A DNA stretch of 57,339 nt, counting the filler, from Sphacelaria rigidula (lineage: Eukaryota), in assembly GCA_964200075.2 (NCBI GenBank). It is 7 parts of 7 records of this genome, joined end to end, with 100 filler letters (N's around TTAATTAATTAA, not from the genome) between each part and the next. Parts side by side here need not be neighbours in the genome. Positions count along the whole stretch, not along the records: positions 8,208 to 16,314 come from CAXNAA020012276.1; 6 more parts are not named here. One strand, given 5' to 3'. Shown here in pieces: positions 8,108 to 49,055 of this stretch. The notes under the pieces were generated by a model, which was given only the letters and a program-made list of their open reading frames with translations, did no database searches and was not told where the DNA came from. A program made the position numbers and the translations under genes. Position 1 is the stretch's first letter. Each line of letters starts with the position of its first letter.

Positions 8108-8207
8108 NNNNNNNNNNNNNNNNNNNNNNNNNNNNNNNNNNNNNNNNNNNNTTAATTAATTAANNNNNNNNNNNNNNNNNNNNNNNNNNNNNNNNNNNNN
8201 NNNNNNN
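8108..8207. other. Artificial contig linker (Ns with central TTAATTAATTAA); also at 16315-16414, 24521-24620, 32726-32825, 40931-41030 and 49136-49235
   Basis: Six 100-bp spacers of the same layout separate contigs of non-increasing length. Confidence 0.97.
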
Positions 8208-8499
8208 CCCCGAGTTGGTCGGGATGTGGTAAAACAAACAAATCAGGGCTGTCAAAGGAGTAAAGAAAAGAAGTAGAGACTAAGGGAGAATCAAACAACA
8301 TCCCCAGGGACCCACGGAGAAAAACATAAAAAATTTCAGAAAGACGGCAGATACACGAGCAAGTATAATACTTGGTGGGCTACGCGATATGTTTCGCCGA
8401 CCTTTGATAGAGACAGAGGGAACCCTTCGAGTACCACAGGAAAGCGTTCGTTTGCATGACGCGCGTTGGTCCAATTTGCCATGCGCCTCTTAGCCCCTT

Positions 8500-10580
8500 C
8501 CTCTACGACCCGGTACGACCCGGAACCATCTTACGCAATTTTCGGCCATAATATCGCGTCTATTCCCAAGGTACAGTAGCACTCAGGGACACGGGGTTGC
8601 ACGCCGTTTCACGGATTGGCCTATCTTCTTCTCCCCCCCGACCATTTTTCTACACATGACGATGTCGCGGAGGCGCTCGTCGTGCTTGCGCGTGACGTGG
8701 CCGGCGTATATTACGATTTGTCTCGATACGGGTAACCTTGATGCAATCGCAGCCAGTTCTTTCGAGAATCTGGCGGTAGGTATCATGAGGTAGTGGGCGG
8801 CGCTGTGGGTTGAGATATGCTCGTCGAAGCACCTCAGCAGTAACCCGCGGTGGGCTCTGCGCAACGGGCTGAAATGATTGGGTGAGAGCGTTCAGATCAT
8901 ACAGCCGTCAAGCATGATTTCAATCACTTCTTCCTTAGGAAACAAACATTTTCGGCCAGGGCAATGTACGTGTTGTCGTATATCGGTCTGCTGCACTTGA
9001 CGGAGCATGTGCAGGCCTGGCCAATGCCGCGGTTGACGTCAGTGGTGATATCACCGACGCTGTTGATGGTACCGCCGAGATAGACGAAAAGACTCCACTT
9101 GCTTGCACCTTTGGCCTGCCGCCTCCACCTCAACCACATCCGCCTTCATGTTTGGGGAGCGCATGTGTATGGTTACCGTCCTCTTTCCTGCCACGACGAG
9201 ACCGCACACCGCTTAGACTTCGACGATGACCGTAATCATCTTTGCCAGGCTTATCTGAGATCACGACACGATGCCAGCGTCGTCGGCGTGCGGCATGACC
9301 CAAAGCACCTCGCAAAGCACGTCGTTGGTGTTCCCACTCCTGGTGGCGATACGAATGACGTAATCAACCATAGCCTTACCGGTCGAGAAGCGGTCGAGCG
9401 CCACCCTCACCATTACCGCGAAGAAGATACTGAACACGTGGACAACCACACAGCCTTGGCAGAGGCCCTCATTAAGGTCAAAATACTCTGAAGTCTCGCC
9501 GCTGTCAAGGCACCCGCACGCCTGCATGCCATGATGGAACTGGGTGATGATGGAAATCATCCTGACAGGGACGCCGTATCGTGCGAGCACCTCCAGAGAA
9601 AAGTGTGGTCAACTGATTCGCACATCTTACGGAGGTCGATGAAGAACATGTACAGCAGAATATTATTTTCTGTGGCCAGATTTTGAAGTCTGCGGATAAC
9701 GCACATCATGTCGACTTTCGACCGGCGGGGTCCGGAACCGCGCTGAGAATCAGGGAGGGTTCTCTTCCGTTCGCACTATTCGCTACGGCGAGTCGTAGCT
9801 ATCTGGAGAACTGCCTTGGCCTCGTGGAACCCTAGGAAGATGCCGCGGTACTTGCTACATTTGTGTGAGTCCTTTTTCTTGAACAGCACGAAGATGACAG
9901 CGTCCGTCCATTCGTGAGTCATCCTGCGATGGGAAGGGGGGGGGGGGTTATTTCGGACCACTTTTTCCACGATAGTCCCCTTCAAATCGCCGTCGAAAGT
10001 AACAACTGCCTGTTGTTCAAACGCGCTTGTCACCCATAATATCACTCACTCATTCCGTTTGACACCGGTTTCCCCCAAATGCGAGCGTATCGCGAGTTTG
10101 TGAGGTCGTCGCACGCACCTATGAGTCCATTTTTTCGTGGTATCACCCCCCCCCCCCCGCCCCCTCTCCTGTGTTACTACCTCCAGACGCTACACTATTA
10201 GCACGAGGTTGTGGAGGCACTTCAGTGTGGCAGAGTCCTCGGTGAGGCTGAGCTTGAGTAGTTCACCACACAGGTTGTCCGTCCCAACAGCCTTGCCGCT
10301 GGTCAACTTGCCCGGTGCTTCCTTCACTTCTTCTATCGAGGGCTCGGTCGCGAGCGCTGCGTTCCCCGGCATCTGTTCGATGGCATCGATGGCAGAGTCT
10401 TTGAGCGTAGGCGAGATTGCATTCAAAAGCTTCTCAAACCACTCTTTCCACATCTATAGGACATTAGATTTCCCGCAATAGCTCTGACGCGCTCCTGATG
10501 TAGATTTAGTCACACCCCTTCTTCCCTTCCATCTCCAAGGGCTTGATATGCTGGTACAGCATTTCCTGGTCTTCCGCGGG
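8500..10580 (-). mobile_element. Degenerate non-LTR retrotransposon (RTE-like LINE) reverse transcriptase
   Basis: Fragments EPSIEEVKEAPGKLTSGKAVGTDNLCGELLK (domain 0), KKKDSHKCSKYRGI (domain 1), LARYGVPVRMISIITQFH, GLCQGCV and PHADD (YADD variant). Frameshifts and an insertion near 9935-10170. Confidence 0.88.
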
Positions 10581-10779
10581 GTAGCTCCGCTGTCCTGGCG
10601 GTGTGTGTGTTGTCGTCCCATTTATTCTGGACACCGGTCTATGCCGACGTACTCGTTAGCACAGCAAGCCACACCCCAAGGTGGATGAGAATGTGACACA
10701 CTGATCCTGTTTTCGACTCGTTAACTCAAACAGTAGGGTCTCTCTTACACAAGGCACTCGTCAGCAGCAGACAGCTGTT

Positions 10780-11030
10780 GAGCCATCCTACGATAGGGAG
10801 GGGGGTATTTTGGGCCATTTGTTGCACGAAATTCCAGGTCAAATCGTCGTTAAAAGCAGCAACGGTTGCTCGGATAAGCTTGTTATAGATACGTGACNNN
10901 NNNNNNNTCTATTAACATCGTTTCGAACCAAATACAAGCGCACCGCGAGTGTGGTAGGTCGTCTGACACACTTATAAGCCTTTTTTTTCGTGCAACCAAA
11001 TACCCCCCCCCCCCTATCGTAGGATGACTC
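10780..11030. mobile_element. Sola-like non-autonomous DNA transposon (~250 bp)
   Basis: TIRs GAGCCATCCTACGATAGGG / CCCTATCGTAGGATGACTC; 4-bp TSD TGTT at 10776-10779 and 11031-11034. Confidence 0.8.
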
Positions 11031-12964
11031 TGTTATTGAAAGTAAGCACCGAGCTTTTTCGGAAAAGGAAATGCCAATTGACACAAAAGGGGTTATGTTA
11101 CTCGTGACTTACTCGTGTTATAGCTCGTCACGGCTTGCCGGCAGAAGATGAGACGTCGCGTAGAGCAGATGAAAAGCTGATGGTCCTTCTTGTGATAAGT
11201 TCTACGGTAGCGGTTTCTGGCGGTGGTCCGCAAGTGGCCGGAGGTGGGGAGCAGGGCTATATCCACTGTTTTCTCCACACCTTCTGCCTCGCTTACAATT
11301 TGCCATAATACCCTCATCAAGGCGCGTGCCTTGGGTGGGCGCGTGCCCCATACAGCCAATCGGATACAAGCAATCCAACTACAAAATCAGCCTGACGTGC
11401 CGTGCTGTGGCCAATCAAAGCGCCCGGAGTAACGTGCGTAATTGCCCGGCCGTAATGCGCAGACCAGTCTGCAGGTTCCTCCATGTAGGATCCAAAACAC
11501 ACATATCTACTTTACAAAGTACACATTCGCCTAGAATCTTGTCGTACCCGCCGATCGTTTGTAAATCAATCGTAGTATTCCTGTACTAGTTTAATTCAGA
11601 CCCTCAGTCATTTACCATCACATTAGCCCACCCTGGACCGCTCAAGTGCAGTCACTTTTCAGGAGGGACGAACTTGCATCGAGCCACACCTCTCCCACAC
11701 AGCAGAAAACAGAGAATCCATTTTGGAGATCGAGTGCTCTTTGGTACGGGGAACGGAAGGGGCGATCAACACAAAAAAACAAGAAAATACAAACACAAGC
11801 ACAAAGCAAAGAGAATATAAAATCGAACCGATACATTGATTCAGTGTCCTCATGTTCCGTGAGCTCTTCAGACGGAGTCATGGGAAATAAGAAAATCCCA
11901 GACCAACGATCAAAGCCATGTACCACAAAATGCAGTGTCTCCAGAATGTCGTAAGCATTTCCGGAATGAACACAGGAAATCAGAGACCAATCATTGAAAC
12001 GGTTATCCTATCTTGCCATAACTATATCATGAATAAACAGTTCACTCTTTTTCGGATGTCCGATTTGTTGTAGGTCATTGGTGGAAGAACAACCAAGCCC
12101 GCCAAGGTGCTATATCATTTCGATAACCAAGTTCATGCTAATCACTCGTCCCAGTCAATCAGCAAAAGCTAGCAACGTACAGCCGATTTCGTCGCGGAAA
12201 TGATAGTTTCCCGCGAAAACCATACGTTGATAAAAAAACCAACTAGCATGACACGGACAAATCAACCCATTTGACGTGAGTTAACTCTCGGTACATGTTT
12301 GTGAGAGCAACGACTTGCTTGGAACGTCTGGTTGATGATCCAGCCGTACAGCATTTGTTTTTCATCACACGACGATACGAAAACAACCGACCGGTTTGTG
12401 AGGTCAGGTGTCCGTACACGTCAAAAGACACGTGGTGGACAATATACAACCTTCGGGCCTACTACGTAGTTCCGAGGCGGATCACCCAACACATTTCTGA
12501 ACCACGACAAATACACAGGACAGAGAGGAGCAACGCAGCCCACTCCTCACAGTATTTGCCTGTTCGGACTAAAACGAGACTGGCCCGAACACAAACTAGA
12601 GTAAAACCCACAGCCGGTCCTACCGTCACGTCACTTCGTCCAATAATCCCTGATAAAAACAAAACACCACCGACCAATTCCAGGGGCGGGTAATTGTACG
12701 CAAAAATTGGTAAGAGTGACAAAAAATAGCGAGTGGCGGACTCTGAGCCTGTAGACTGTAGACTGTACCAACGGTCGAGTATCGACATGGCGGAACGGAC
12801 AGTTCCGAAAGAGCGATCTACCTCATCATGATACCTGATGGTCCTGTATGAGGAGACGTTTACAACCGATCTTACCGCGACTTCAATAACAATTCTTGAA
12901 CACCGCTATGTACGACGCGGTCAGTGGTGGCCTCGTTGTAACTTATCACTCACCAAGGTATAAA

Positions 12965-13860
12965 TCATCGCGTCGCATTACCCGTGACCCTCCTATAAAC
13001 GAGGTCGGTCACAGGCCGCAGGACTCGCAAAAAAAGTAGGCCAAGTGTTCTAGACTCGAGGGTCAGGAACGTTGGAACACTTGTGGCGAAATTCCCGACG
13101 AAGACGCAGAAACCAATACCAAAATAAATACAAAACCAGGGGCACGTTGGGCAACAGCGAAAACAAAAATCGTCAACATGAGGCAGAAAAACAACACGTG
13201 GTAACCGTCTTTGTGAACGGGAGCAGTTATCGTGTGTATGAAGCAAGCAGGGTCAAAATTTTCAGCCAAGAAGGTCAAAACATTTCAGGCAAACCCATGT
13301 CAATATAAAACTCAACGTGGTACGCACACAAAAAGGGGACACGTCATTGCCGATCCTGCAGGTGGAGGCGGTATGCGTGTACGGAGCGGTTGGGCAAGAG
13401 CGCAATTATTCCAGACGGGGAGGTCAGGTATATGCAGCGCTCGCTCCTAAACTCTCAACCGAAAAGGCAAAAATAAAGAAAAATACTGACAACACATGAT
13501 ACAAAGAAAAAGGACACGTCATGACCGGTCCCGAAGAGGGAGGCGGCATTCGCGTGCGGAGCGATTGAACAAGAGCGCAAATATTCCAGACGGGGGCGTC
13601 AGGTATGGCTAGCGCTTGCTCCGGGAACTCTTCCATCGAAACAAAAAAATAAAAATAAAGATCATGTAATAAACAAAGCAAGACAAGATGTGCGCACAAC
13701 GAGAAGAAAAAATGAAGAAATAAATAACTCGTGGCAACTGTTCCAGTAGAAGGAATGGTTGTGAATGTACGGCACAGAGGATGGAGGTTCAAGATTCCAG
13801 ACTCGGGGTCAGGAATGGAACGGTCGTCACTTGTACTTTGCCAGATGAACCCAGGATTAA
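12965..13860. repeat. Diverged tandem units with A-rich spacers and a conserved stem-loop core, downstream of the gypsy pol
   Basis: Core TTCYAGAC-N5/6-GTCAGG at about 13048, 13409, 13584 and 13795. Units 13337-13465 and 13512-13640 align end to end. Confidence 0.7.
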
Positions 13861-14199
13861 ACAAGAAAATTACCCATTGAACACAAAAAATGAAAAACAC
13901 AGCACAAGGCGAAAAGAGAAGAAAAGAAGAGCAGAAAAACAAAAAGCAAAGACAAAAAACAAATCAAAGCAATTAACGCAAAGGCAAAGAAAACCGAAAC
14001 ACAAAATCAAGGCCGAAGCAACAAAAAACAAAACACAACAAAAAAATACGAAATATAAAAACAAAAGACCAAATACCAAATACAAAACACGACATCAACC
14101 ACTACAAGTACGGGGCTAACCAGTACGAAAAAAATGAAGGGGGGAAGGGGGGGAACACATGGCTTTCCAACGACACTACAATGCAAGACAAGCGACTCG

Positions 14200-16314
14200 A
14201 ACGCGGTACACTACGCAGGGTGAATGGGGAAGCAGACTCGGATGCGGCATCATGAGTCATCTGCATCCCAAGCGGTGTCCGTGTTCCGTAGAACGGCTGT
14301 TTCGAGTTCGCCTTGGTCGTGTCGTTGGAGGCACGAGGATCACCTCCAAGCGGTCGGCTCCTCGGTGTAGTACGCACCATCCAAGCGAATCTTAAGGGGG
14401 CTCGGGTCATCAAGGAAACGGATCAAGTGGTCAGATGCAGGATCGACCAAATGAATTTTTCCCAACCACCACAGTGAATCCAAGGCCTTATACCAAAAAT
14501 ACGCCCATTTCGGCAATCGTTTTCCGTGAAAACACTGCATGTATCGTGAACGCGAAAGAAGGCTATATCCTGCCACAACAAACCGCGCTGAGTGTTCACG
14601 TGCCAGTTCTCGAGCGGCAGCTCCCTTGCGCATCGACCGATATCTCTGATTCAACGGGCGGTGTTGGACGGTATCTCCTACCCAGTACAGCGATATTTTC
14701 CGACGAAAATGACACAAATCAACCTCACGCTCCCATGTAACACGTATGATACCCTTCCAATGTGTTTGATACATTACCGCTATCTTACCTCCACGACCAC
14801 GAACCAGTTGGTGACCCGAAATCCCATCTACCTCAACGCGTTCCAGGGGTTCGTCCGCATCCTCGACCGTCATATGTTACGGCGGGGTTTTGATTGCGTA
14901 CTTGGTCAACACATACTGGCTAAGCCCTACCGGCAGTTGTTTGGGCATGTCAGAGGAGTCATGAGGGGGGATACACGGTTTGCATCGTAACATCGAGACG
15001 CGATTTTTCGGTTTCAAACCAGGTTCATCCGTGGGAAAATCTACATACAAGAGTTTCGCTCCCACCGGACTCTTGTCGGGTGCGGTAGCGCTCGGAGCAA
15101 CAGCTAAAAAATTTCAAAGACCAGTCCAATTCAAAGATATTTTCGCCTTCAACACTTTATTCAAAGATGATGATTTCGAGCTAGCCCCTTGATTGATGGT
15201 CTTCACATCGTTATACCTCCATACCCATTGGCCTACCTTCCACACCGGGCGGTTATGCACCACATAATCCAACATCGAGTTCGCCCTGGCTAAGTTGGCC
15301 AAATTGATTTATTTGGTTCTGTTAACCGACAAATGATACTCTGCAACATCACGATCCAGACTCTGATGTCCACCTGTATTTTTGCGTTTGAATACCGTTG
15401 AAGGTAACCGAGGCATGCATCCGATATGAATTTAAGTCAGCGACAATCCCGTAGCGGCATTGACTGAATTGTTGTAGTTCATCTGGACAAGGGGCAGGTG
15501 CAGATCCCAGTCCATCTGTCTCTCATTCGCTACAGCAGCAAGCATCTATGCTATCGTATGGTCCACTCATTCCGTTCCACCATTGGTGGAAGGGTGATAT
15601 GAACTAGTAAAAATGCGATGGATACCCAAAAGGTCACTGACGGCGGCAGAAAGCTTGCGTGAAAAATGCGGACCGTTGTCAGGTAATAAGCGTTCGGGCA
15701 CACCCCACAGTGGGATGTACATGTAGACAAGAATGTTGGCGGTACCTTCCGCGGTATAACTACTGGGGGGGATGGCGTGCATCACCGGATATCGACTAAA
15801 TCTATCCGTAAACAACAAAATATACTTATTCCCACTACCCGTCAGGGGCAAAGGACCAAAACAGTCCCACGAAATTACTTCACCAGGCCCGTTTGGGAGT
15901 GGCATGGAAACAATTGGCCAACGAAGTTTTTGGCGAGAAGTTTTTCGCGCCTGACGCAAAAGACAACGCCTCACCCACCAACGACAACACTGATCCATAC
16001 AAATCCACCAATAAAAATGTTCCAACACCTGGGAGGTCCTAATGACGCCTAAATGAGTCGATGCCTGTGAATGGCATTCGTGTAGAACCCATGGGCGCAG
16101 TAGCATCGGGACATAGATGCAGACGGGTTCATCACCTAGCAAGAGGGCATTTCGACTTGTAGGCTTCCCCCTTGGGAGGGCTGCTGACACTTTCTACGGT
16201 AGCCCCCCCCCCAAAAAGGGCATGGTTTTGGGAGACATAATCTTCGCGTAAATCGAAATGGGAAAAGCCGAGCACAACAAGAAGCTGGGAGTTCCCACGC
16301 TTGGGTTCGTTCTA
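14200..16314 (-). mobile_element. Ty3/gypsy LTR retrotransposon, copy 1: integrase (HHCC-like, DDE core), GPY/F region, chromodomain, Tudor-like domain; contains stops
   Basis: ORF 15567-16190: HECH...HLG...FYWW...SWDCFGPLP...FTDRFSR...PDNGPHF...YHPSTNGGTE. KISLNWTG near 15120. ORF 14340-14873: VEVDGISGHQ...YQTHWKG...TWERE. Confidence 0.92.
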
Positions 16315-17199: not shown

Positions 17200-20100
17200 C
17201 AAAAGAAACTGGGTATCACACGAATTAATCGGAAAGCACAAGTACTATCAAGCTCCATCAGTGTCCCACGCCATGTCAGGATTGCGTAAGACAGCTTTGT
17301 CGATGTCGCCTTTGTCGTGTCGCTGTAAGCACCTAGATATTCGGCGGGCGGTTGACACCTTTGCGTAGTAGTCGTAGTCGAGGCAGATTTTGAGGGGGCC
17401 CGGGTCATTGAGCGAATGAAGCAAGAGTGGTCTACTGCAGAATAAATCAAACGAATTTTCCCCAGCCACCACCACGAATCCATTGCTTCGTACCAAATAT
17501 ACCCGCTTTGGGGAAAGCGCTTCCTACGAAAAGAAACTAATTGTTGCGAACGAGACACAAAGATATACCCGCCGATGATGAACCGCGCGGAGTGCTCCCG
17601 TGCTAGCTCACGAGCCGCTACTCCCTTCCGCATGGATCTATAGCGTGTGTGCAACGGATGGTGTTGTACGACATCTCGTACCCGATACAGAAGTGTTTCT
17701 CTCCGAAAATAGCGCAAATTGACTTCTCGTCCCCATGTAACACACATGATGCCATTCCAGTGTATCTGATACATAGCCGCTATTTTACCTCCTCGACCTC
17801 GAACTCATTGATGGCCCCAGATGCGATCCACCACCACACGCTCAAGAGGGCCGTTGGCGTCTTCAACCGTCATGGGATACGGCGGAGCTTTGGTCGCATA
17901 GTTGGTCAGGACGTACTAACTGAGACCTAGTGGCAATTGTTTGGGCATGTCTGTTGTATCATGTGGGGGCAGACACGGTTTACATCTAAGCATCGGAACT
18001 CGGTTTTTGGGTCTGATGTCAGATTAATCCAAAATAGTGTTTGCCCTGGCAACTTTCGCTGCATTGATTTAGTTCTGCTTGCGTACCACATCATATGCAA
18101 GACGAAACGATGACTAACAGAAATATAGTATCCCGTAATATCTCGATCCAAACTTTGGTGGCCTCCGAAAGGTTTCATGTCATGATGAAGTTACTGAACT
18201 ATCGCGAAAAAGTATGCTTGATACGGATGATGATGAAAAGTGTGCAGCTGAAAAGTGTGGGGGCTTTGTGGTTCCCAACGGGCAAGAGGAATTCAGCTGC
18301 TGAAAAAAGAAACGGGCAGTCTTTGGATAGATAATGCACAGCCAGTCTACAATCAGGTTCAGCTTGTTATTACCTGGCCCAATCGGCGTGGGAGAAATGG
18401 GTCAAACGTTCCTCAAGTACACTATCCGACGGTTTGTCCAAAATGAAGGGGTTCGTGTCACGGCTGTGCTGACTCGAATCAGGGATATTTGGATCATGGG
18501 TGGGGGGATTAGCTCGTGTATCTTCGAGCGGAACGTCGGTTTCGACTCTCACATCGACCAGTGTGTTGCATGATGTGGCGTCAGTGGGGACACCATCACC
18601 GGAAGGGGAGAGCAAAGCCGAGGTTTCGGCTATGGGAGGTAGGGGTGCCATGGATAGGATCGAGTTTATGAGAGCCTCGCGCCGCGGTGGGTGAGGGGGC
18701 GCAAGGGATGTATCTTGCACCGGAACGGGAGTCGGGATGGGAAGGTTCGGGCCAGCCGTCAGGGTGGGGTCGTCTCGGCGGTCCGTCGCCCTCGGGTTTT
18801 ACTCGTGATGAGATCTCGAACTCGAACTGGGAGGACAAAGTCAGTACAAACCGGGTCTACATCTGCAGTACAAGCGTTTCGATGACTAGTTGCACGGCAT
18901 TGATCATACCTATTCGTGTTTGTACTACTTCCACTCCAGACTGAACGCAACGATCGTGGTGGCATACTGCCTAGTACAGAAGTGTGTGCTGTAGTTGTCA
19001 GCCCACCAATACCAAGTGCCCGAGTTGTGGCTCAGTGAAAGTGGTGTGTAGAGTCCGCTATGACCGTTCCTGCCAATGAAATATATAATGTCTTCGACGG
19101 GATCCGTGGTGCGTCCCAAGGCCGGCTGTCGATGGCTTGAGTCGGTATGGGCAAGCGAGATAAATAAAAACAGCATTTGCGTTTTGAGGTCCTGTTTGAC
19201 ACTTCAGCGTGATGTTGTAAGAGGACAGGAAATCAAACCAGCGGTGGACCCGGGGGTTGTGTTCCGCCATTTAGCGAGGTTCACCATAGACTTATGATCT
19301 GTATAAATCACAAACCGGATGTTACACAAGTACTGGCAAAGTTATCACACTCCCCACACAATCGCGCCCGCCTCTTGCTCCATGATCTACCAGTCCTGCT
19401 CGTTTGGGTAGGTGATTCGACTCAAATATACAATGGGGGGAACATTAGCATCTGTGTAAAAGTTTTCTGTTCCAACGTGCAGTCGAACCCAACTTTGGAG
19501 GAACCCCAGTGAAGTCGGAACGGTCGTGAGCCATCTTCAGCTGCTGACCAGTCTAGACAAACCAAGATTGGTGGTATCGAAAGTGTGTCAAGCAGTTGAC
19601 GTACGTTTTTTTCGTATCCGACGTGAACACGAATTCCACTCCTTTTTGAAAAGGATGTGAGGGGTTTGAGGGTTTGGGCTAGATTCGGCAAATACTGTCG
19701 GTAGTAGCCCCAACCGCCAAGCAAGGAGCGTAGTTGACACGTATCCCGTGGCATGGGCATAGTTGAAAGTGCGGCAGCCTCGTTGAGGTTCGGGCTACGA
19801 GCTTTAGGAGAGATGAAGTGGCCTAAGAATTCGATGCTAGTCGCTCCAATGCCGGATTTGGACGGGGCGAGTTTCAAGTTGTGTTGTTCAAAGCGCGCGA
19901 AGAAAGACGCAAAGTGCTCGGCATGTTCGGGAGTGTGCTACCGCGTATTACCGTATCATTAGGGTATACATACATGACACTTGAAGAATCCAGTAGTCAC
20001 ACGGAACGTCACACGTTGACACGCCCGGGGGGCGTCGACGGCACCTTGTGGTGATACCAACCATTCGTACAGGCCTCACGATGCAAAAAACGCCGTCAAC

Positions 20101-23040
20101 TCTATAAATTGCGGGTCCGTGACAAGTTGGTGGTAGCTGATGCACTATTTTCGTTGTGAACGAGGCATCCATGATTGCCGTTCCACTGACTAGATCCGCT
20201 CCAAATTCTGGCAAGAAATCTGTGGACAAACCCTGCTTGTGATTGTGAACGATTGCACTGCAATACACACGCTGATGATCCTTCGGAACAAGATTTCTGT
20301 CCGAGGGTGGGTCCGGGCACGGAGTGTCTTTTACAGTTGTTGGGGAAATTGTCGAGTGTTGAATTCCGTACACTGTGATGGATGGACGATGCCTGAGAAG
20401 GGCAGTTGTCGTGGCTGGACGCGACAACTGTTGCGTTTGGTTTGGGACACTTGATCGACCGCAACAAGTAGCGCAGCATCTAGTACGGGCAAACAAGGGG
20501 ACGATTCGGCAAGGGGCGGAAGTGATTTGGCTATACCATTCAGCCGGTCGCCGCGGTGGCTCAGTTAGTAACCTCGGAACCTTCTGACGGTTGGGTCGTG
20601 GGTTCACATCTCGGAGCGATCTGGGGTTTTTCTCACACCATCTCGAACAGTGGAGAGCGACTATGTCGTGGGTACACAACATTCGACTTAATGGTCGACG
20701 ATGGAAAGGGACTGCTGATCCCCTCTCGCGATAAACAATGAAGAGAGGCACCGCAGAAGAAAGGTGGAGTACTAAAAACAAACAAAAAAAAACAACTCCT
20801 ATGTTGACCCTCCTCCTGTATGACCCCCCGGCTGGTGCGCCCACATATAACGAAAGGTGTAGACTGGCGTCCAGCATAGATTGAACGACAACACACACAC
20901 GACGACACCATTCAACTCGCCACCCTTGTCAGTTGGGGCCAACGTTGGTACAACAGGGGACGAGCGGTCAGACGTGGACGGCTCGCCGGTCACTACACCA
21001 TGTTTTCCTTGTGATGAAGGCACAGACGGAAGGTTTTCATGACAAGGAGGCGAACGCCCAATTGACAGCGAGGTATTTGACCGAAGAGATGACAACGCCA
21101 ATTTTGTGGTGGGTTCTAGCATTGTGTGTGAGGGGTCGGCACGGAGCAGGGTTGATCTGTTCGATATCTGGAAAACGCCGGCCTGGTCCACTGTACCGTC
21201 TTCATCTGAAGAAACCCACACTCCTTCACGATCGTGGTAGACGGGTGCAACTGCGTCATCAGGGATATTTATAGGGTCATCCGGAGGCGCCCGCCGAGGG
21301 TTACGCGTATAACGCACCAAACGTTCGGCTGCTCCGGGGACTATTGGGAATTGGTCAAGCGCAGTACGCCCTCAGTCACGCTCATGGTGCTCCACCGGCG
21401 CTGTAACTTGGGGTTCCCTCCCAACCCGCTGAGCGATGGAAAGCCAGGGTTCGTTACGGTTGCGCTCCGTGCACAAACAATTATCCTTACCAAAAAAAAA
21501 GGAGCCGGGCACCGACGTAATTTATTTCGTGGGTGTAACGTGGATCGGCTTGCCACCTAAGCGTCTTCGGGGGCTGGTGTGTGGCCTTGATTTTGATATC
21601 CTACGATGAACGGTCGCAGGGGTAACAGCTCCCGCGCCAAAAGATGTATCTGCTTCGGGTGCGGGAGGTATTACGCTACATGACTGCCGATCCCGCGAGG
21701 AGAAAGGTTCCAACCGGCTATGATTAATACCACTTGGATGTAAAACTGGATGAACAGCTCCTTAAATCACTGGGGTTGGTCATTGCTCAATTGGGAGTCA
21801 TGGAAAGGTGCAAGGGATTCTGCTGCCATGAAACCCATCATGACAGTCTGATCGAGCTCAGGGTACCCGCCCACGACCCTGAACCTGTGCTGGTCGACAC
21901 TGATTCAGGTTTATGATGTGTGTTCACTAGCCGAGCGAAAGAGGGGGGAGGGGGCACTTCCGCGGCATTTCGCCGTCAATAATTGGTTCCCTAATGTGGG
22001 CCTTTGGCAGACAGTGGGGAATGAACGCGAAGTATAATCAGAACGTTTAGAGGGCGGCAGCTCAGTTACGGGGGCAGTCGCACACTCGGGGCTACCCCAC
22101 TGTATGCTATTCGGAAACGCGGGGCTCTGTACATTTCCAAATCACCGTCAGGTGATGCGTTTAGCATCAGTGGAAAAACGGTTGTCTTCCTGGCGGGGTT
22201 CTGCCGGTGTGGCAGTTCCTGTTGTGAAAGGTAGACGAACGTCTTGTGGTTGTTCTTTGTTTGTGGATAAAAAGCGCCAGGCGGAGGGGGGGGGCAGGCT
22301 CGTGCGGACAGCGTCAGCCGGCTGAGTCTGATAGTAGGGCTGATGGTACTGGTTGTTGGGGGCGCGAGGTTCATTACCAAGGTGACGATTTCCGCGCCGT
22401 GGACGTTGGTGTGAATTGCGGGCGTCGCCAGATTGAGGGCGGCGGTAAGAACGCATACGCGCTTGCCAGGTCTACCAGCATTGAAAATATTTGGTCCAAG
22501 TAAAGTGGTTTGAGCACACCGAACGCGTTTGTGAAATGGTTCTCACAGGTGCGTATCAAATATGGGCACGCAATCGGTCGCGGGATAACCAGTTTGTTCA
22601 TGAAACCAAATGCCACAACATTAACGTGTATCCTTACGGGGGCGGATCAGGGCAGTCCCAATGATGGGATCGACGTGACGGGTCCATATCGGTGTTCCGA
22701 AATGGTTCGTGGACGTGCTGATTTGATGTGCTCATCGCCAAATGTTTGGTACGAAAAGCCGAGGAGTGAATCGACTGGTAATCATGACGGGGGTTGGTAC
22801 CGTCGCTGAAAACATTACCTAACCGACTGATAAATTCGTATATTATCCATTTCAGCCAGCGAGACGGACGGTGGGACGCATCCGTGCTGCCGAAAATTGA
22901 ATCAAGAAGGGCAAGGAAGTGAGAAAACGCAATGACGGACTTCGTTCTTCTCATAAAAGTCTGGATGTCAGGGGTTGGCTGCAGATGACGGGTTTTATTC
23001 GACATGCAGCTTAGTGCACACCGCACATTTACCCTGCCTG
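17200..23040 (-). mobile_element. Ty3/gypsy LTR retrotransposon, copy 2 (same family): degenerate gag region, RT, RNase H, integrase with the catalytic core deleted, chromodomain and Tudor-like domain
   Basis: RT: YHQL...TAFFAS*GLYEWLVSPQG (~20040-20150), KLAPSKSGIGATSIEFLGH, QLRSLLGGWGYYRQY. RNase H: RPFRLH, NPRVHRWFDFLSSY. The C-terminus at 17250-17870 is homologous to 14340-14873. The upstream (gag) boundary is approximate. Confidence 0.88.
20545..20906 (+). mobile_element. tRNA-derived SINE nested in gypsy copy 2
   Basis: A-box TGGCTCAGTTAG (20557), B-box GGTTCACATCTC (20601), (CA)n tail. ~10-bp TSD ACCATTCAGC/ACCATTCAAC at 20535-20544 and 20907-20916. A related tail lies on the minus strand at ~10600-10640. 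Confidence 0.75.
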
Positions 23041-24244: not shown

Positions 24245-24520
24245 AGGCTACATGCCTAAAGATACCGCATGTACTGCAGGCAATGGTTCATCCGACATTC
24301 ACCTTGAGCATACGAATGCTGAAATACATCTTTTAGTTGCGCAGTGATGTGCAACTGCGAGTCGGCATAGAAACGTGAACGAGCGACATGGGTCGAGTGC
24401 ACAGCGCCGGAAGCAATGCTCTGCACCGAATACACGTGAGCGTGATCGGCTCCGACCACTCGCCACGGACCTGTCCACGTGGACATCAACTTTGGCGTCA
24501 CCCCTTGCCTCCGAACATGG
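24245..24520 (-). mobile_element. Fragment of a different Ty3/gypsy integrase C-terminus (GPY/F module)
   Basis: KLMSTWTGPWRVV...VYSVQSI...HVARSRFYAD; truncated at the contig end. Confidence 0.8.
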
Positions 24521-36290: not shown

Positions 36291-36949
36291 TCGGACGTAC
36301 GATAGCCCTCATGTTCGCGACCCGGCTCGTTTTCACTCAGTCTTCGTGGACACATCGTCCTCGGCATTGTGCCCCCTGCGGTGAGCACATATCTCCCACT
36401 TATGCACGCTCACTGATGGGTGGAGGGATGATGGGTGCCGGCTCTGCTGATGAAATCTCTATTGGTGTGAGGGTTGACGACGGTTGGAGGTCCATCTGTA
36501 CACTTGTGGGCATGGTATCTGTACGCGCAGCACCTGAGAACTGGAAACGCACCAGTCAGTCATCGGGAGTGCGTGCAGGGTGCCAAGAGTGGTCTCTACA
36601 TTAAAATCAAGTAAGGAACCTATCAACTCGGCTGCGACTGTGAGGTGGCCAAAGGTACTGTCTGCTGAAAACTCCAACAACCATTTCCCGTCCAGCTGAG
36701 GACCTCGGAGGCCAACGACTTCGGAGGATGCACCGGAGATGACTGAGGTCATCAGGGAATTGAACCGTCTATGTTGGCTTCTGGTTCCGGCTCGAGTGGG
36801 AGGCGGGGCATGGCATCGGGCAGCACGTGTCGAACTCCCTCTCGCCATCGGAGGTCCATGTCGTACTCCATGAGTCGGAGGGCTCACCTGTGAAGCTTGG
36901 TACACAACTCACGGCTTCGAAACAACTTCGTTGGTGCTGAGCAAATCGC

Positions 36950-46899: not shown

Positions 46900-49055
46900 A
46901 GTACAGTAACTCCTCCAGGGAGACACCAGAAAAAACCCCCGATTGTGACATCAAAGTGCATGCTAGGATAAAGCAGACGCTGAACAAGAGAACGATGAGA
47001 GTTGATCCCTAAGCAGCCTTTATAACAGCCGTCGAAAACGCGATTCACCGAACAAGGGTCCATCATCGTCGAAAACGAAAAACTCAACTTGTTGAGGCTC
47101 AAATAATGCTACATTCTGCGCCGTACCCTAAGGAGTCGGTAACGTTACACTCCAAGTTGACACGTGTTCAACAATTTTAAAAGCAGTTGCTGTTGATTCC
47201 AAATCGGAACTGCCTGTAATTCCTCTGAAAGATCATCCGGCCACGTCTGGTTTAGAGTCGCAGCCAGAGTAAATGGTACACCAGCTAAAAAAAAACACAA
47301 TCGATGCCGCGGCAGAGGTACCATGTATCAGCAAAAGTTTATAGATGAACACGGGCAATAATTGCAGCTGAAAAAAACCAGTACCGCCAGGTTCCATTGA
47401 TCTCAGATGCGGGGACGGTTTCCCCATGGAAATCCTAGGGTTCATGCGTTTCGAGCTGACGTTGGGGATAAAAACCCTGCCAGTAGAAGCGTTGGTATTA
47501 GTATGGGGTTGGATTGTTCACTACTAGACAATCCCATTATGAGCGCTTGCAAAGCTATACTCGACTGGCAGGCGGAAGAGTTGACATTCAGTGATTCCAG
47601 TATAAAAACCAAAGCATCACATCGAAAATAACACACTCCGACAAAACACATTGTACTGTAGTTATTGTGAAATGCTTTAACGACCCCGTTCCAATCTTTC
47701 TCTGAAAAAACAAATGCAGTGGGCCACCGCAATGGCAGTATGAGTCGAAACGGACAATACCCCGTCAACGATGACAGCAGGTATCGTAGAGCAACGCATA
47801 ATGACCGAGGGAGGCACCCGATCGCCTGATGTGCCCCAAAGATTCACGCACATCATTGTTGCAAAAACAGAAGCTCTATGCACGTGGTCGATAATAATTA
47901 AGACGGGAATGGTACAAATAACCAACACGTCGAGCCGACATGTAAACCCGAAACGCAATACGAGTTTAGGCTATATCACCTCAATACAAGAGGCGAAAAA
48001 CCGGAGAAACTTAACAATAATAATGATGAAATACAAAACCGGAGAAACTTCATGTTATTCCGGATACCCTCTCACGACTGTTTGTGTTTCAAGAGTGACA
48101 AGAAGCTGAAAGCAAGCCGTTGCTTACACATATATGTTGTACCGTGCCGGCGCAGCATACAGCTGAACCTCAGCACCAATGTCAAATATCAGCTGAGAAG
48201 TTCGATCGTTTGAAGCCGGTGCAAAGTGACCGTGAGCTGTTAGTCAACCGCGAAACAGTTGCAAAAAGAGCAAACACATGAGTGCGCACACTATGTCAGG
48301 GTTGCCAACTCCGAAAGAACGGTCCACAACCGGCCAAAATTTGCTGATGGGACACGTTCCGATAGGGCGGCAATAAGAAAGAATATCAGCAGACCTAGTC
48401 GAGTACAAAATAGCCTCGATGTCAAAAGCTGGAGTACTATTAATAGGTAAATAGGTATTGTCCGTAATGGACCACCTCGCAGGGTATGCCTTGCTCATTC
48501 CGGTACCAAATAAACAAGCCACGTCGATAGCCAAAACGTTTATCGATAGAGTTGTACCATATTTGGCATCCCGGAAAGCTGCATTTGGATCAAAGAGCCG
48601 AATGGGAAACAAGCTAATATACGCACGGCAACAAGAGCTGGGTTTCAACACAATTGTCGCGACACCGTTGCGCCCGCAAGGTAATTCAGTGTCGAAACGA
48701 ATCCACTCCACTTTGCACGCATTGTTAGCTAGGCATATGTAAGTTGGAAACAAAAAATGGGTATCCGTGCTTCCGTTCATCCAAATTGCGTACAACAACA
48801 CAACCTATCACATTGCAGTACAGGAGATACCGTATCTTGTATTGTTCGGAAAACAGCCCAGATTACCAATCGACATCATTCTCGGCATACTTTAGGGAAA
48901 CGAAGCGGCAACACCCCAAGAATTTTCCAAAGAAACACGGGAAAGTCTGCGGTTAGGATTTGAAATTGCAGGACAAGCTCTACGAGAAAAGCGAATGAGC
49001 AAAACAACGAAAACAAATTACAACCGTTCCCAGTCTTCAAACTCGATCAAAAGGT
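46900..49055 (+). mobile_element. Degenerate Ty3/gypsy relic: gag-like and protease remnants and integrase core; RT/RNase H apparently deleted
   Basis: CSLLDNPIMSACKAILDW (protease end); SVMDHLAGYALLIPVPNKQATSIAKTFIDRV, TPLRPQGNSVSKRIHSTL, WVSVLPFIQIAYN, LFGKQPRLPID. 46995-47070 also matches 32995-33070. Confidence 0.85.

Follow-up and report, generated by a model that had tools for sequence, protein, structure and literature searches.

The window analyzed here, a 57,339-nucleotide (57-kb) stretch from Sphacelaria rigidula, is built from contigs of ~8.1 kb with N44+TTAATTAATTAA+N44 spacers between them. Because these spacers fall at positions 8108-8207 and then every ~8.2 kb, features on either side of one are not real neighbours. 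The integrase end that concerns us lies on contig G000:C12276 (window 8208-16314), on the minus strand, within a decayed Ty3/Gypsy integrase frame that runs from 16313 to 14250 as a single reading frame whose 5' side is cut by the contig end. There are seven internal stops in this frame (15569, 15548, 15434, 15311, 15116, 14879 and 14342). Thus, the 'ORF 14340-14873' named in a sequence-only reading is a stop-to-stop fragment of a dead copy, and its status as a stand-alone gene is ruled out. Nor is the stop at 14340 the genuine end of the module, as sister copies extend 30 codons beyond it, with a tail in which a strand is predicted and one motif is invariant. The window integrase aligns with a stop-free sister copy (L035) as a single tblastn HSP (16151-14259, 72%) and with an outside relative, P0238, at 51% across 626 columns.

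From its N-terminal side, the integrase comprises an H2C2 zinc-binding domain (15939..16112; Pfam PF17921, E 1.7e-09), the rve catalytic core (15591..15893; Pfam PF00665, E 2.5e-09), and a GPY/F-type C-terminal region (14973..15251; GPW in sister copies) that probably adopts an SH3-like fold. Next comes a chromodomain (14676..14846), group II-like with one of three cage aromatics and with a nearly invariant RGRGG hairpin, and then a basic linker helix with invariant arginines (14598..14648; helix 77-93 in the AF2 model). A short strand and helix, seen in AF2 models (14526..14573), open the second module, whose core is a predicted Tudor/PWWP-like beta barrel (14379..14522) recognized by Foldseek as PHF19-like and by a PDB profile search. 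The barrel of the window copy lacks two codons relative to sister copies. A conserved tail, made up of a further strand and short helices (14250..14378), ends at the terminal stop (14250-14252) and is broken in the window copy by the stop at 14340-14342. All of these features are on the minus strand, and the chromodomain and barrel peptides share one frame in the places where the sequence-only reading had put them.

Downstream of the integrase, on the same strand, lies an internal 3' region of ~2.6 kb (11623..14249) that matches sister loci at 83-90% in blastn, with no conserved ORF noted. Within this 3' non-coding region we observed a direct repeat of ~160 bp (77%; window 13326-13657), which is also present in sister copies. 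The 3' LTR (10642..11622, minus strand; ~730 bp without an insertion) has the TG...CA ends of Ty3/Gypsy LTRs, and a primer-binding-site-like sequence follows the 5' copy. Matches start at the 11622 boundary in 5 of 29 loci, with unrelated flanks. At the far end they stop at 10639-10649 and are followed either by unique flanks or by a common primer-binding-site-like sequence, the latter found next to the LTR end in 10 of the 29 loci. A 251-bp inserted element with terminal inverted repeats (10780..11030; no strand assigned) sits inside the LTR and is absent from the site in all five sister copies examined, which read across it. Position 11031 was ruled out as an LTR end, being the insertion site of this element. 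A similar small inverted-repeat element occurs within another family copy (L011), and similar ends are found where the next contig begins (16415-16502). That contig also holds a second, more decayed family copy (17257..20135, minus strand), with reverse transcriptase (RT), RNase H, and integrase pieces and a chromodomain plus Tudor-like block. By eye, a LINE-like RT fragment adjoins the LTR (9776-10453), and other Gypsy RNase H/integrase pieces gave short matches at 36755-36943 and 48518-48877.

Copies of this family are numerous in the S. rigidula genome: at least 150 were found (all 150 candidates that were scored matched, from 1107), at 68-92% identity, the window copy itself excepted. A second family in the genome stands at ~45-50% identity. 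Among 29 close sister loci, 11 gave one same-frame alignment from the region of the catalytic Glu to the barrel; the other 18 had frameshifts at differing places or alignments that stopped short. Stop-free natural frames span the module in L004 and L015 (551 aa each), L035 (745 aa), and L038 (583 aa), the last two of which were picked from nine stretches selected for long open frames. In these less-decayed copies, a chromodomain and then a Royal-family barrel follow in frame with the integrase, as had been claimed. The Pol order protease-RT-RNase H-integrase was found in P0007 and P0238, in L032 and L033 of the same genome, and in the second window copy. Outside the genome, a profile run against 1.84 billion representative sequences returned 741 matches at E 0.001 or better. 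All named outside relatives are brown-algal, from Ectocarpus (7 of 52) and Nemacystus, and in 25 of the 52 outside proteins rve shares one polypeptide with 90% or more of the chromo-Tudor block. No relatives were found by a scan of viral contigs, nor did any viral model match in Foldseek at an E-value of 0.001 or lower. Judged from the named relatives, the host is probably a brown alga, and the integrase end described here belongs to a dead copy of an abundant brown-algal Ty3/Gypsy family.

Both blocks are kept in 45 of the 52 outside relatives, a detection that is partly circular because the profiles came from 43 rows that include 41 of those proteins. The blocks are spaced 53-54 residues apart in 41 of the 45. 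Six of the remaining relatives have a chromodomain only, after which they diverge or end, and one has the barrel only. Between two subfamilies, the chromodomain and a core segment both had a pN/pS of 0.12, compared with 0.15 in the barrel and 0.05 in the helix (16 non-independent pairs of natural open frames), with pS at 0.69-0.83 in the four segments, such that synonymous sites are close to saturation. Within a young subfamily (six pairs), pN/pS ranged from 0.15 to 0.91, as expected for decaying copies. We therefore observe purifying selection on the module comparable to that on the integrase core. Four arginines (R26, R83, R89, and R93) are invariant in all 13 non-redundant rows (sequences <70% identity). 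The linker helix has a median net charge of +4 over residues 76-98, and the barrel a median net charge of 0.

The two modules were modelled together from 43 natural sequences with AF2 at a pLDDT of 88.4 and a pTM of 0.79, and the second module alone at 87.4 and 0.80. The predicted chromodomain is a three-stranded sheet followed by a helix (strands 16-26, 32-40, and 47-50; helix 51-66). Beyond it come the long helix 77-93, a short strand and helix, four strands over 126-166, and, at the module end, one more strand (183-188) and short helices. Both the pTM and the fixed spacing suggest that the chromodomain and helix pack on the barrel. Residues 11-67 matched Chp1 in VIA (Z 7.8, rmsd 1.7 over 53), tied with Chd1, HP1, and Rhino. 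Pfam Chromo recognized sister L002 at E 5.9e-4 and the best relative at 5e-6, and phmmer gave chromodomain matches as well (MPP8, Polycomb, and Swi6, E 0.04-0.5).

For the barrel, the top ten Foldseek rows are all PHF19 or PHF1 Tudor domains (E 0.005-0.008, probability 1.00, 29-32% identity, rmsd 1.8-2.5 over 47-52 columns), with the best PHF19 row at E 4.6e-3, probability 1.00, and rmsd 2.5 over 51 columns at 29% identity. VIA aligned the barrel with PHF19 at Z 5.2 and rmsd 2.1 over 55, and a barrel profile run against 177,635 PDB sequences found the PHF19 Tudor only (three of three matches, E 0.01). At the head of the VIA list stands a TraI domain (Z 6.2, rmsd 5.9), level with rows for UHRF1, Spindlin, Papi, RDM15, Agenet, and PWWP domains. 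All fold matches of the module have E >0.001 or Z <8. Among 38 members, no Tudor or PWWP Pfam model reached the cut-off on the barrel; the commonest weak match was myosin SH3 (10/38, best E 0.0054), along with Agenet (3/38, best E 0.0057) and PWWP (2/38, 0.073). Pfam was blank on the window ORF 14340-14873 and on the second block of L002, and phmmer with the 210-aa block matched no PDB chain; the module is thus seen by profiles and folds only. ESM Atlas leads were all <0.9, with a Chromo cluster at 0.86. PWWP domains have a helical bundle after the barrel and an aromatic ahead of the PWWP motif. Here, only short helices follow the barrel, and position 134 is without F, W, or Y in 43 rows. PWWP rows do occur among the weak Foldseek and VIA matches, and the W-x-K and WW positions are, to our eye, reminiscent of the PWWP pattern. 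As modelled, and at weak E-values, the second block belongs to the Royal family as a Tudor/PWWP-like barrel that bears an extension of its own. The SH3-like/Tudor barrel proposed from the sequence is therefore predicted, and the pair of blocks goes beyond chance resemblance, given the AF2 folds, their Foldseek and VIA matches to chromodomains and Tudor domains, and their conservation among relatives.

In alignment, both methyl-lysine cages appear incomplete. With the register taken from MPP8 and Swi6 alignments, the chromodomain positions equivalent to HP1 Y24, W45, and Y48 are aromatic in 0/13, 13/13 (W), and 1/13 rows, in agreement with the sequence-only reading, which had noted that the central W is kept without its two partners. 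Three cage aromatics define group I chromodomains, and the reduced pattern is that of group II (PMC3350952); with one of three kept, ours is not of the classical group I type. The cage of the PHF1 Tudor consists of W41, Y47, F65, and F71, and binding by MTF2 is weakened where one aromatic is missing (PMC7492083). When mapped by sequence alignment to PHF19, with the fourth position extrapolated beyond the aligned stretch, the equivalent barrel positions are A/G/S/T in 13/13 rows, W in 13/13, F in 12/13, and P in 13/13. Two of the four positions of a PHF1-type cage are thus aromatic and two are non-aromatic in every row, which speaks against the earlier idea that the barrel's aromatics form a histone-mark pocket. 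Other tryptophans of the barrel fall outside the cage positions. Tyr129, two residues upstream of the lost Trp, is kept in 12/13 rows and could rebuild the pocket, the conserved candidates being Y129 (12/13), W137 (13/13), F156 (12/13), and D158 (12/13). The nearly invariant RGRGG loop (window 14790-14804) aligns to the ARKGGG loop of Swi6, which has been described as a histone-tail mimic. RGRGG is also an RG-type motif adjoining a Tudor-like barrel.

The genome holds other Gypsy lineages with related ends. Our own guess was that the CDD Tudor model of PMC12477816 is PTM-like, and hence we searched with PF21743 (PTM/DIR17-like Tudor), which gave 118 matches among 150 scored, here called lineage B. 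Over 25 loci of this lineage, a weak (20-27%) integrase match was found in 11, and most of the others share an upstream block. Lineage B has an Ectocarpus relative (P0271), and its integrase is only 24-27% identical to ours. It split from our family at 100/100 in a tree without an outgroup, and its Tudor was missed by our barrel profile (best E 1.3). Taken together, the split, the integrase identity, and the lack of a profile match rule out that our family is the PTM-like Tudor lineage. We treat lineage B as a probable proxy for Gypsy-10. By eye, a conserved, cage-less chromodomain-like block precedes the Tudor in lineage B (L120:1189-1416:+, L122:1195-1419:+, P0264-P0271). In profile-profile comparison, this block and our chromodomain shared 37 ungapped columns in register at E 0.038 and a probability of 1.4%, with a chromodomain-chromodomain control lower still (0.3%); a PDB profile search with the block gave nothing relevant. 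A third Gypsy lineage, lineage C (L142-L168), has an integrase that stops just after the chromodomain helix, and a related-looking piece lies at window 24256-24510, at the end of the third contig.

The barrel is also found outside integrases. P0117, P0128/P0229, and P0122 are non-integrase proteins of 612-832 aa, each known from a single gene call, with no informative Pfam or Atlas match. P0117 and P0128, which resemble each other from end to end (29%, E 6e-57) and have no integrase, finish with the barrel module but have neither chromodomain nor long helix; P0122 has the complete chromodomain and barrel unit at its end. The N-terminal part of P0128 found nothing in the ESM Atlas, JGI metagenome scans for P0128 and P0117 turned up no locus, and searches of the S. 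rigidula genome with P0117 or P0122 recovered the shared module only. Matches of the non-integrase proteins that bear the module start at the short strand and helix (14526..14573). The point at which P0117 and P0128 begin to match suggests a natural boundary of the barrel, and that the barrel is mobile.

Chromodomain integrases are a textbook case of retrotransposon targeting, with H3K9me as their best-known ligand. For the family described here, we consider mark-independent chromatin tethering, mainly through basic residues on nucleosomal DNA, to be the leading mechanism, with a probability of roughly 0.55. In working elements, the integrase would end in a chromodomain, a basic helix, and an extended Tudor/PWWP-like barrel held in fixed geometry. 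This unit would tether the integration complex to chromatin, and so bias the landing sites of copies, mostly without reading one trimethyl-lysine mark. The conserved arginines of the RGRGG hairpin and linker helix would contact nucleosomal DNA, and the two reduced pockets may add weak or low-methylation tail contacts or host-factor contacts. Tethering of this kind leads because the cages are incomplete while the arginines are invariant. It is also favoured by the weakening of MTF2 through one missing aromatic (PMC7492083), by the reported lack of H3K9me and H3K27me3 in Ectocarpus (PMC12477816), by the precedent of a Tudor pair that binds nucleosomal DNA whatever its methylation (PMC13285377), and by the presence of nucleosome-bound Chd1 chromodomains among the tied top VIA matches. 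Counted against it are a barrel that is not basic, the weak fold matches, and Tyr129, which may restore a pocket. We also count against it that, according to a preprint, brown-algal chromodomains occur in centromere-targeting and dispersed elements alike and so do not tell the two apart, which puts their role in targeting in doubt (10.64898/2025.12.07.692804).

A second possibility is specific mark recognition. If the barrel did recognize methyl-lysine through a rebuilt pocket (Tyr129, Trp137, Phe156, and Asp158), it could read a repeat mark like H3K79me2 or H4K20me3 and steer insertions into repeat-rich chromatin, with the chromodomain as a scaffold. The near-complete conservation of these four residues fits this idea, as does the fact that the best matches are the methyl readers PHF1 and PHF19, and H3K79me2 and H4K20me3 are repeat-associated in Ectocarpus (PMC12477816). 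However, every row has a small residue or Pro at two of the canonical cage positions, the MTF2 cage with three aromatics binds weakly (PMC7492083), and Tyr129 may not face the pocket; we consider such a reader unlikely, though deserving of serious attention. Alternatively, the module might supply extra SH3-like C-terminal domains that hold the integration complex together, bind the element's own DNA or RNA, or engage a Gag or RG-rich partner in assembly, with no part in site choice. In VIA, residues 79-203 align with extended Tudor domains (Z 5.0-5.5), whose ligands are methyl-arginine peptides, retroviral two-domain integrases are among the weak Foldseek rows, and the barrel also ends the non-integrase proteins P0117 and P0128, which have Arg/Ser-rich stretches. 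Against this, the integrase of lineage C in the same genome ends directly after its chromodomain, so Gypsy integrases in general do not need the barrel, and the position and pairing of the domains agree with known targeting domains (PMC3350952). A role confined to structure or assembly therefore seems doubtful to us. Least probable, and in our judgement very improbable, is that the second block has no kinship with Tudor domains and is just a generic SH3/KOW-like barrel, leaving no two-reader unit. Matches to TraI, Spt5 KOW, a designed SH3 barrel, and myosin SH3, and E-values that are weak throughout, could be read this way, but the PDB sequence search gave the PHF19 Tudor alone (3/3), all of the top ten Foldseek rows are PHF1 or PHF19, and the VIA rows are mostly Royal-family.

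A bolder proposal, which we regard as a long shot, is that tandem chromo-Tudor integrase ends were built twice independently in brown-algal Gypsy elements, with a PHF19-like barrel here and a chromo-like block plus PTM-like Tudor in lineage B. The barrel would then be portable, having also passed to non-integrase proteins, and, in a host devoid of H3K9me and H3K27me3, would read some other feature, for example, H3K79me2/H4K20me3 nucleosomes, via a rebuilt pocket together with DNA contacts. The conserved two-domain end, with both its pockets reduced, offers a small soluble construct and named residues for testing.

Ectocarpus Gypsy elements form four lineages, three with a C-terminal chromodomain and none of them chromoviruses, and Gypsy-10 has a C-terminal Tudor (PMC12477816). 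This placement indicates that our family is probably not a chromovirus either, and that the chromovirus framing of the sequence-only reading is probably wrong. Lineage IV elements, such as Gypsy-12_Ec32, have an N-terminal YbiA-type NADAR domain and lie near Chronos with low support (PMC12477816). We found an N-terminal NADAR with the same C-terminal block in P0037 (Ectocarpus sp. CCAP 1310/34), P0238, and P0245. The L035 integrase is 63-66% identical to those of the NADAR-bearing relatives and groups with them; in our tree, which has no outgroup, the family and the NADAR-bearing elements form one 100/100 group of nine rows against two to three lineage B rows. Because the NADAR-bearing relatives carry the same block, we link the family to Ectocarpus lineage IV, to which it is probably related. 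A NADAR search of the S. rigidula genome gave two matches (L100 and L101), both on a long and possibly bacterial contig (G000:C4) that is not among the family's listed contigs. The local family thus seems to be without NADAR; the 5' part of the window copy is lost at the contig end.

We found no description of an integrase with both a chromodomain and a Tudor domain in the open literature, including the texts of PMC12477816, PMC11541908, PMC5348765, and 10.1101/2021.11.30.470311. The tandem therefore appears to be undescribed, although a Tudor on a brown-algal Gypsy integrase has already been published for a different lineage (PMC12477816). A lineage reported to have only a chromodomain seems to bear another Royal-family domain, one that escapes standard profiles. 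The presence of this domain in a lineage IV-like family would mean that Tudor-type barrels joined brown-algal Gypsy integrases at least twice.

Among known systems, our family shares a C-terminal chromodomain with lineage IV, whose text description gives the chromodomain only (PMC12477816). Like our family, the Gypsy-10_Ec32 lineage is a brown-algal Gypsy whose integrase ends in a Tudor-type barrel, but it is a separate lineage with the Tudor in place of a chromodomain (PMC12477816). The Ectocarpus centromeric retrotransposon ECR-1 also has a Gypsy integrase with a C-terminal chromodomain; unlike ours, it keeps all three cage aromatics, and we found no mention of a second domain for it (PMC11541908). 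Group II chromoviruses (plant Tekay, Reina, and Galadriel) likewise have a C-terminal chromodomain without the first and usually the third cage aromatic (PMC3350952). They differ in that a single chromodomain is described (PMC3350952), and the Ectocarpus lineages are reported to be unrelated to them (PMC12477816). Finally, the PHF1/PHF19/MTF2 Tudor has the same predicted barrel, at 29-32% identity over ~50 columns. Ours differs from it in having two of the four PHF1 cage positions non-aromatic and in the additional strands and helices that enclose the barrel.
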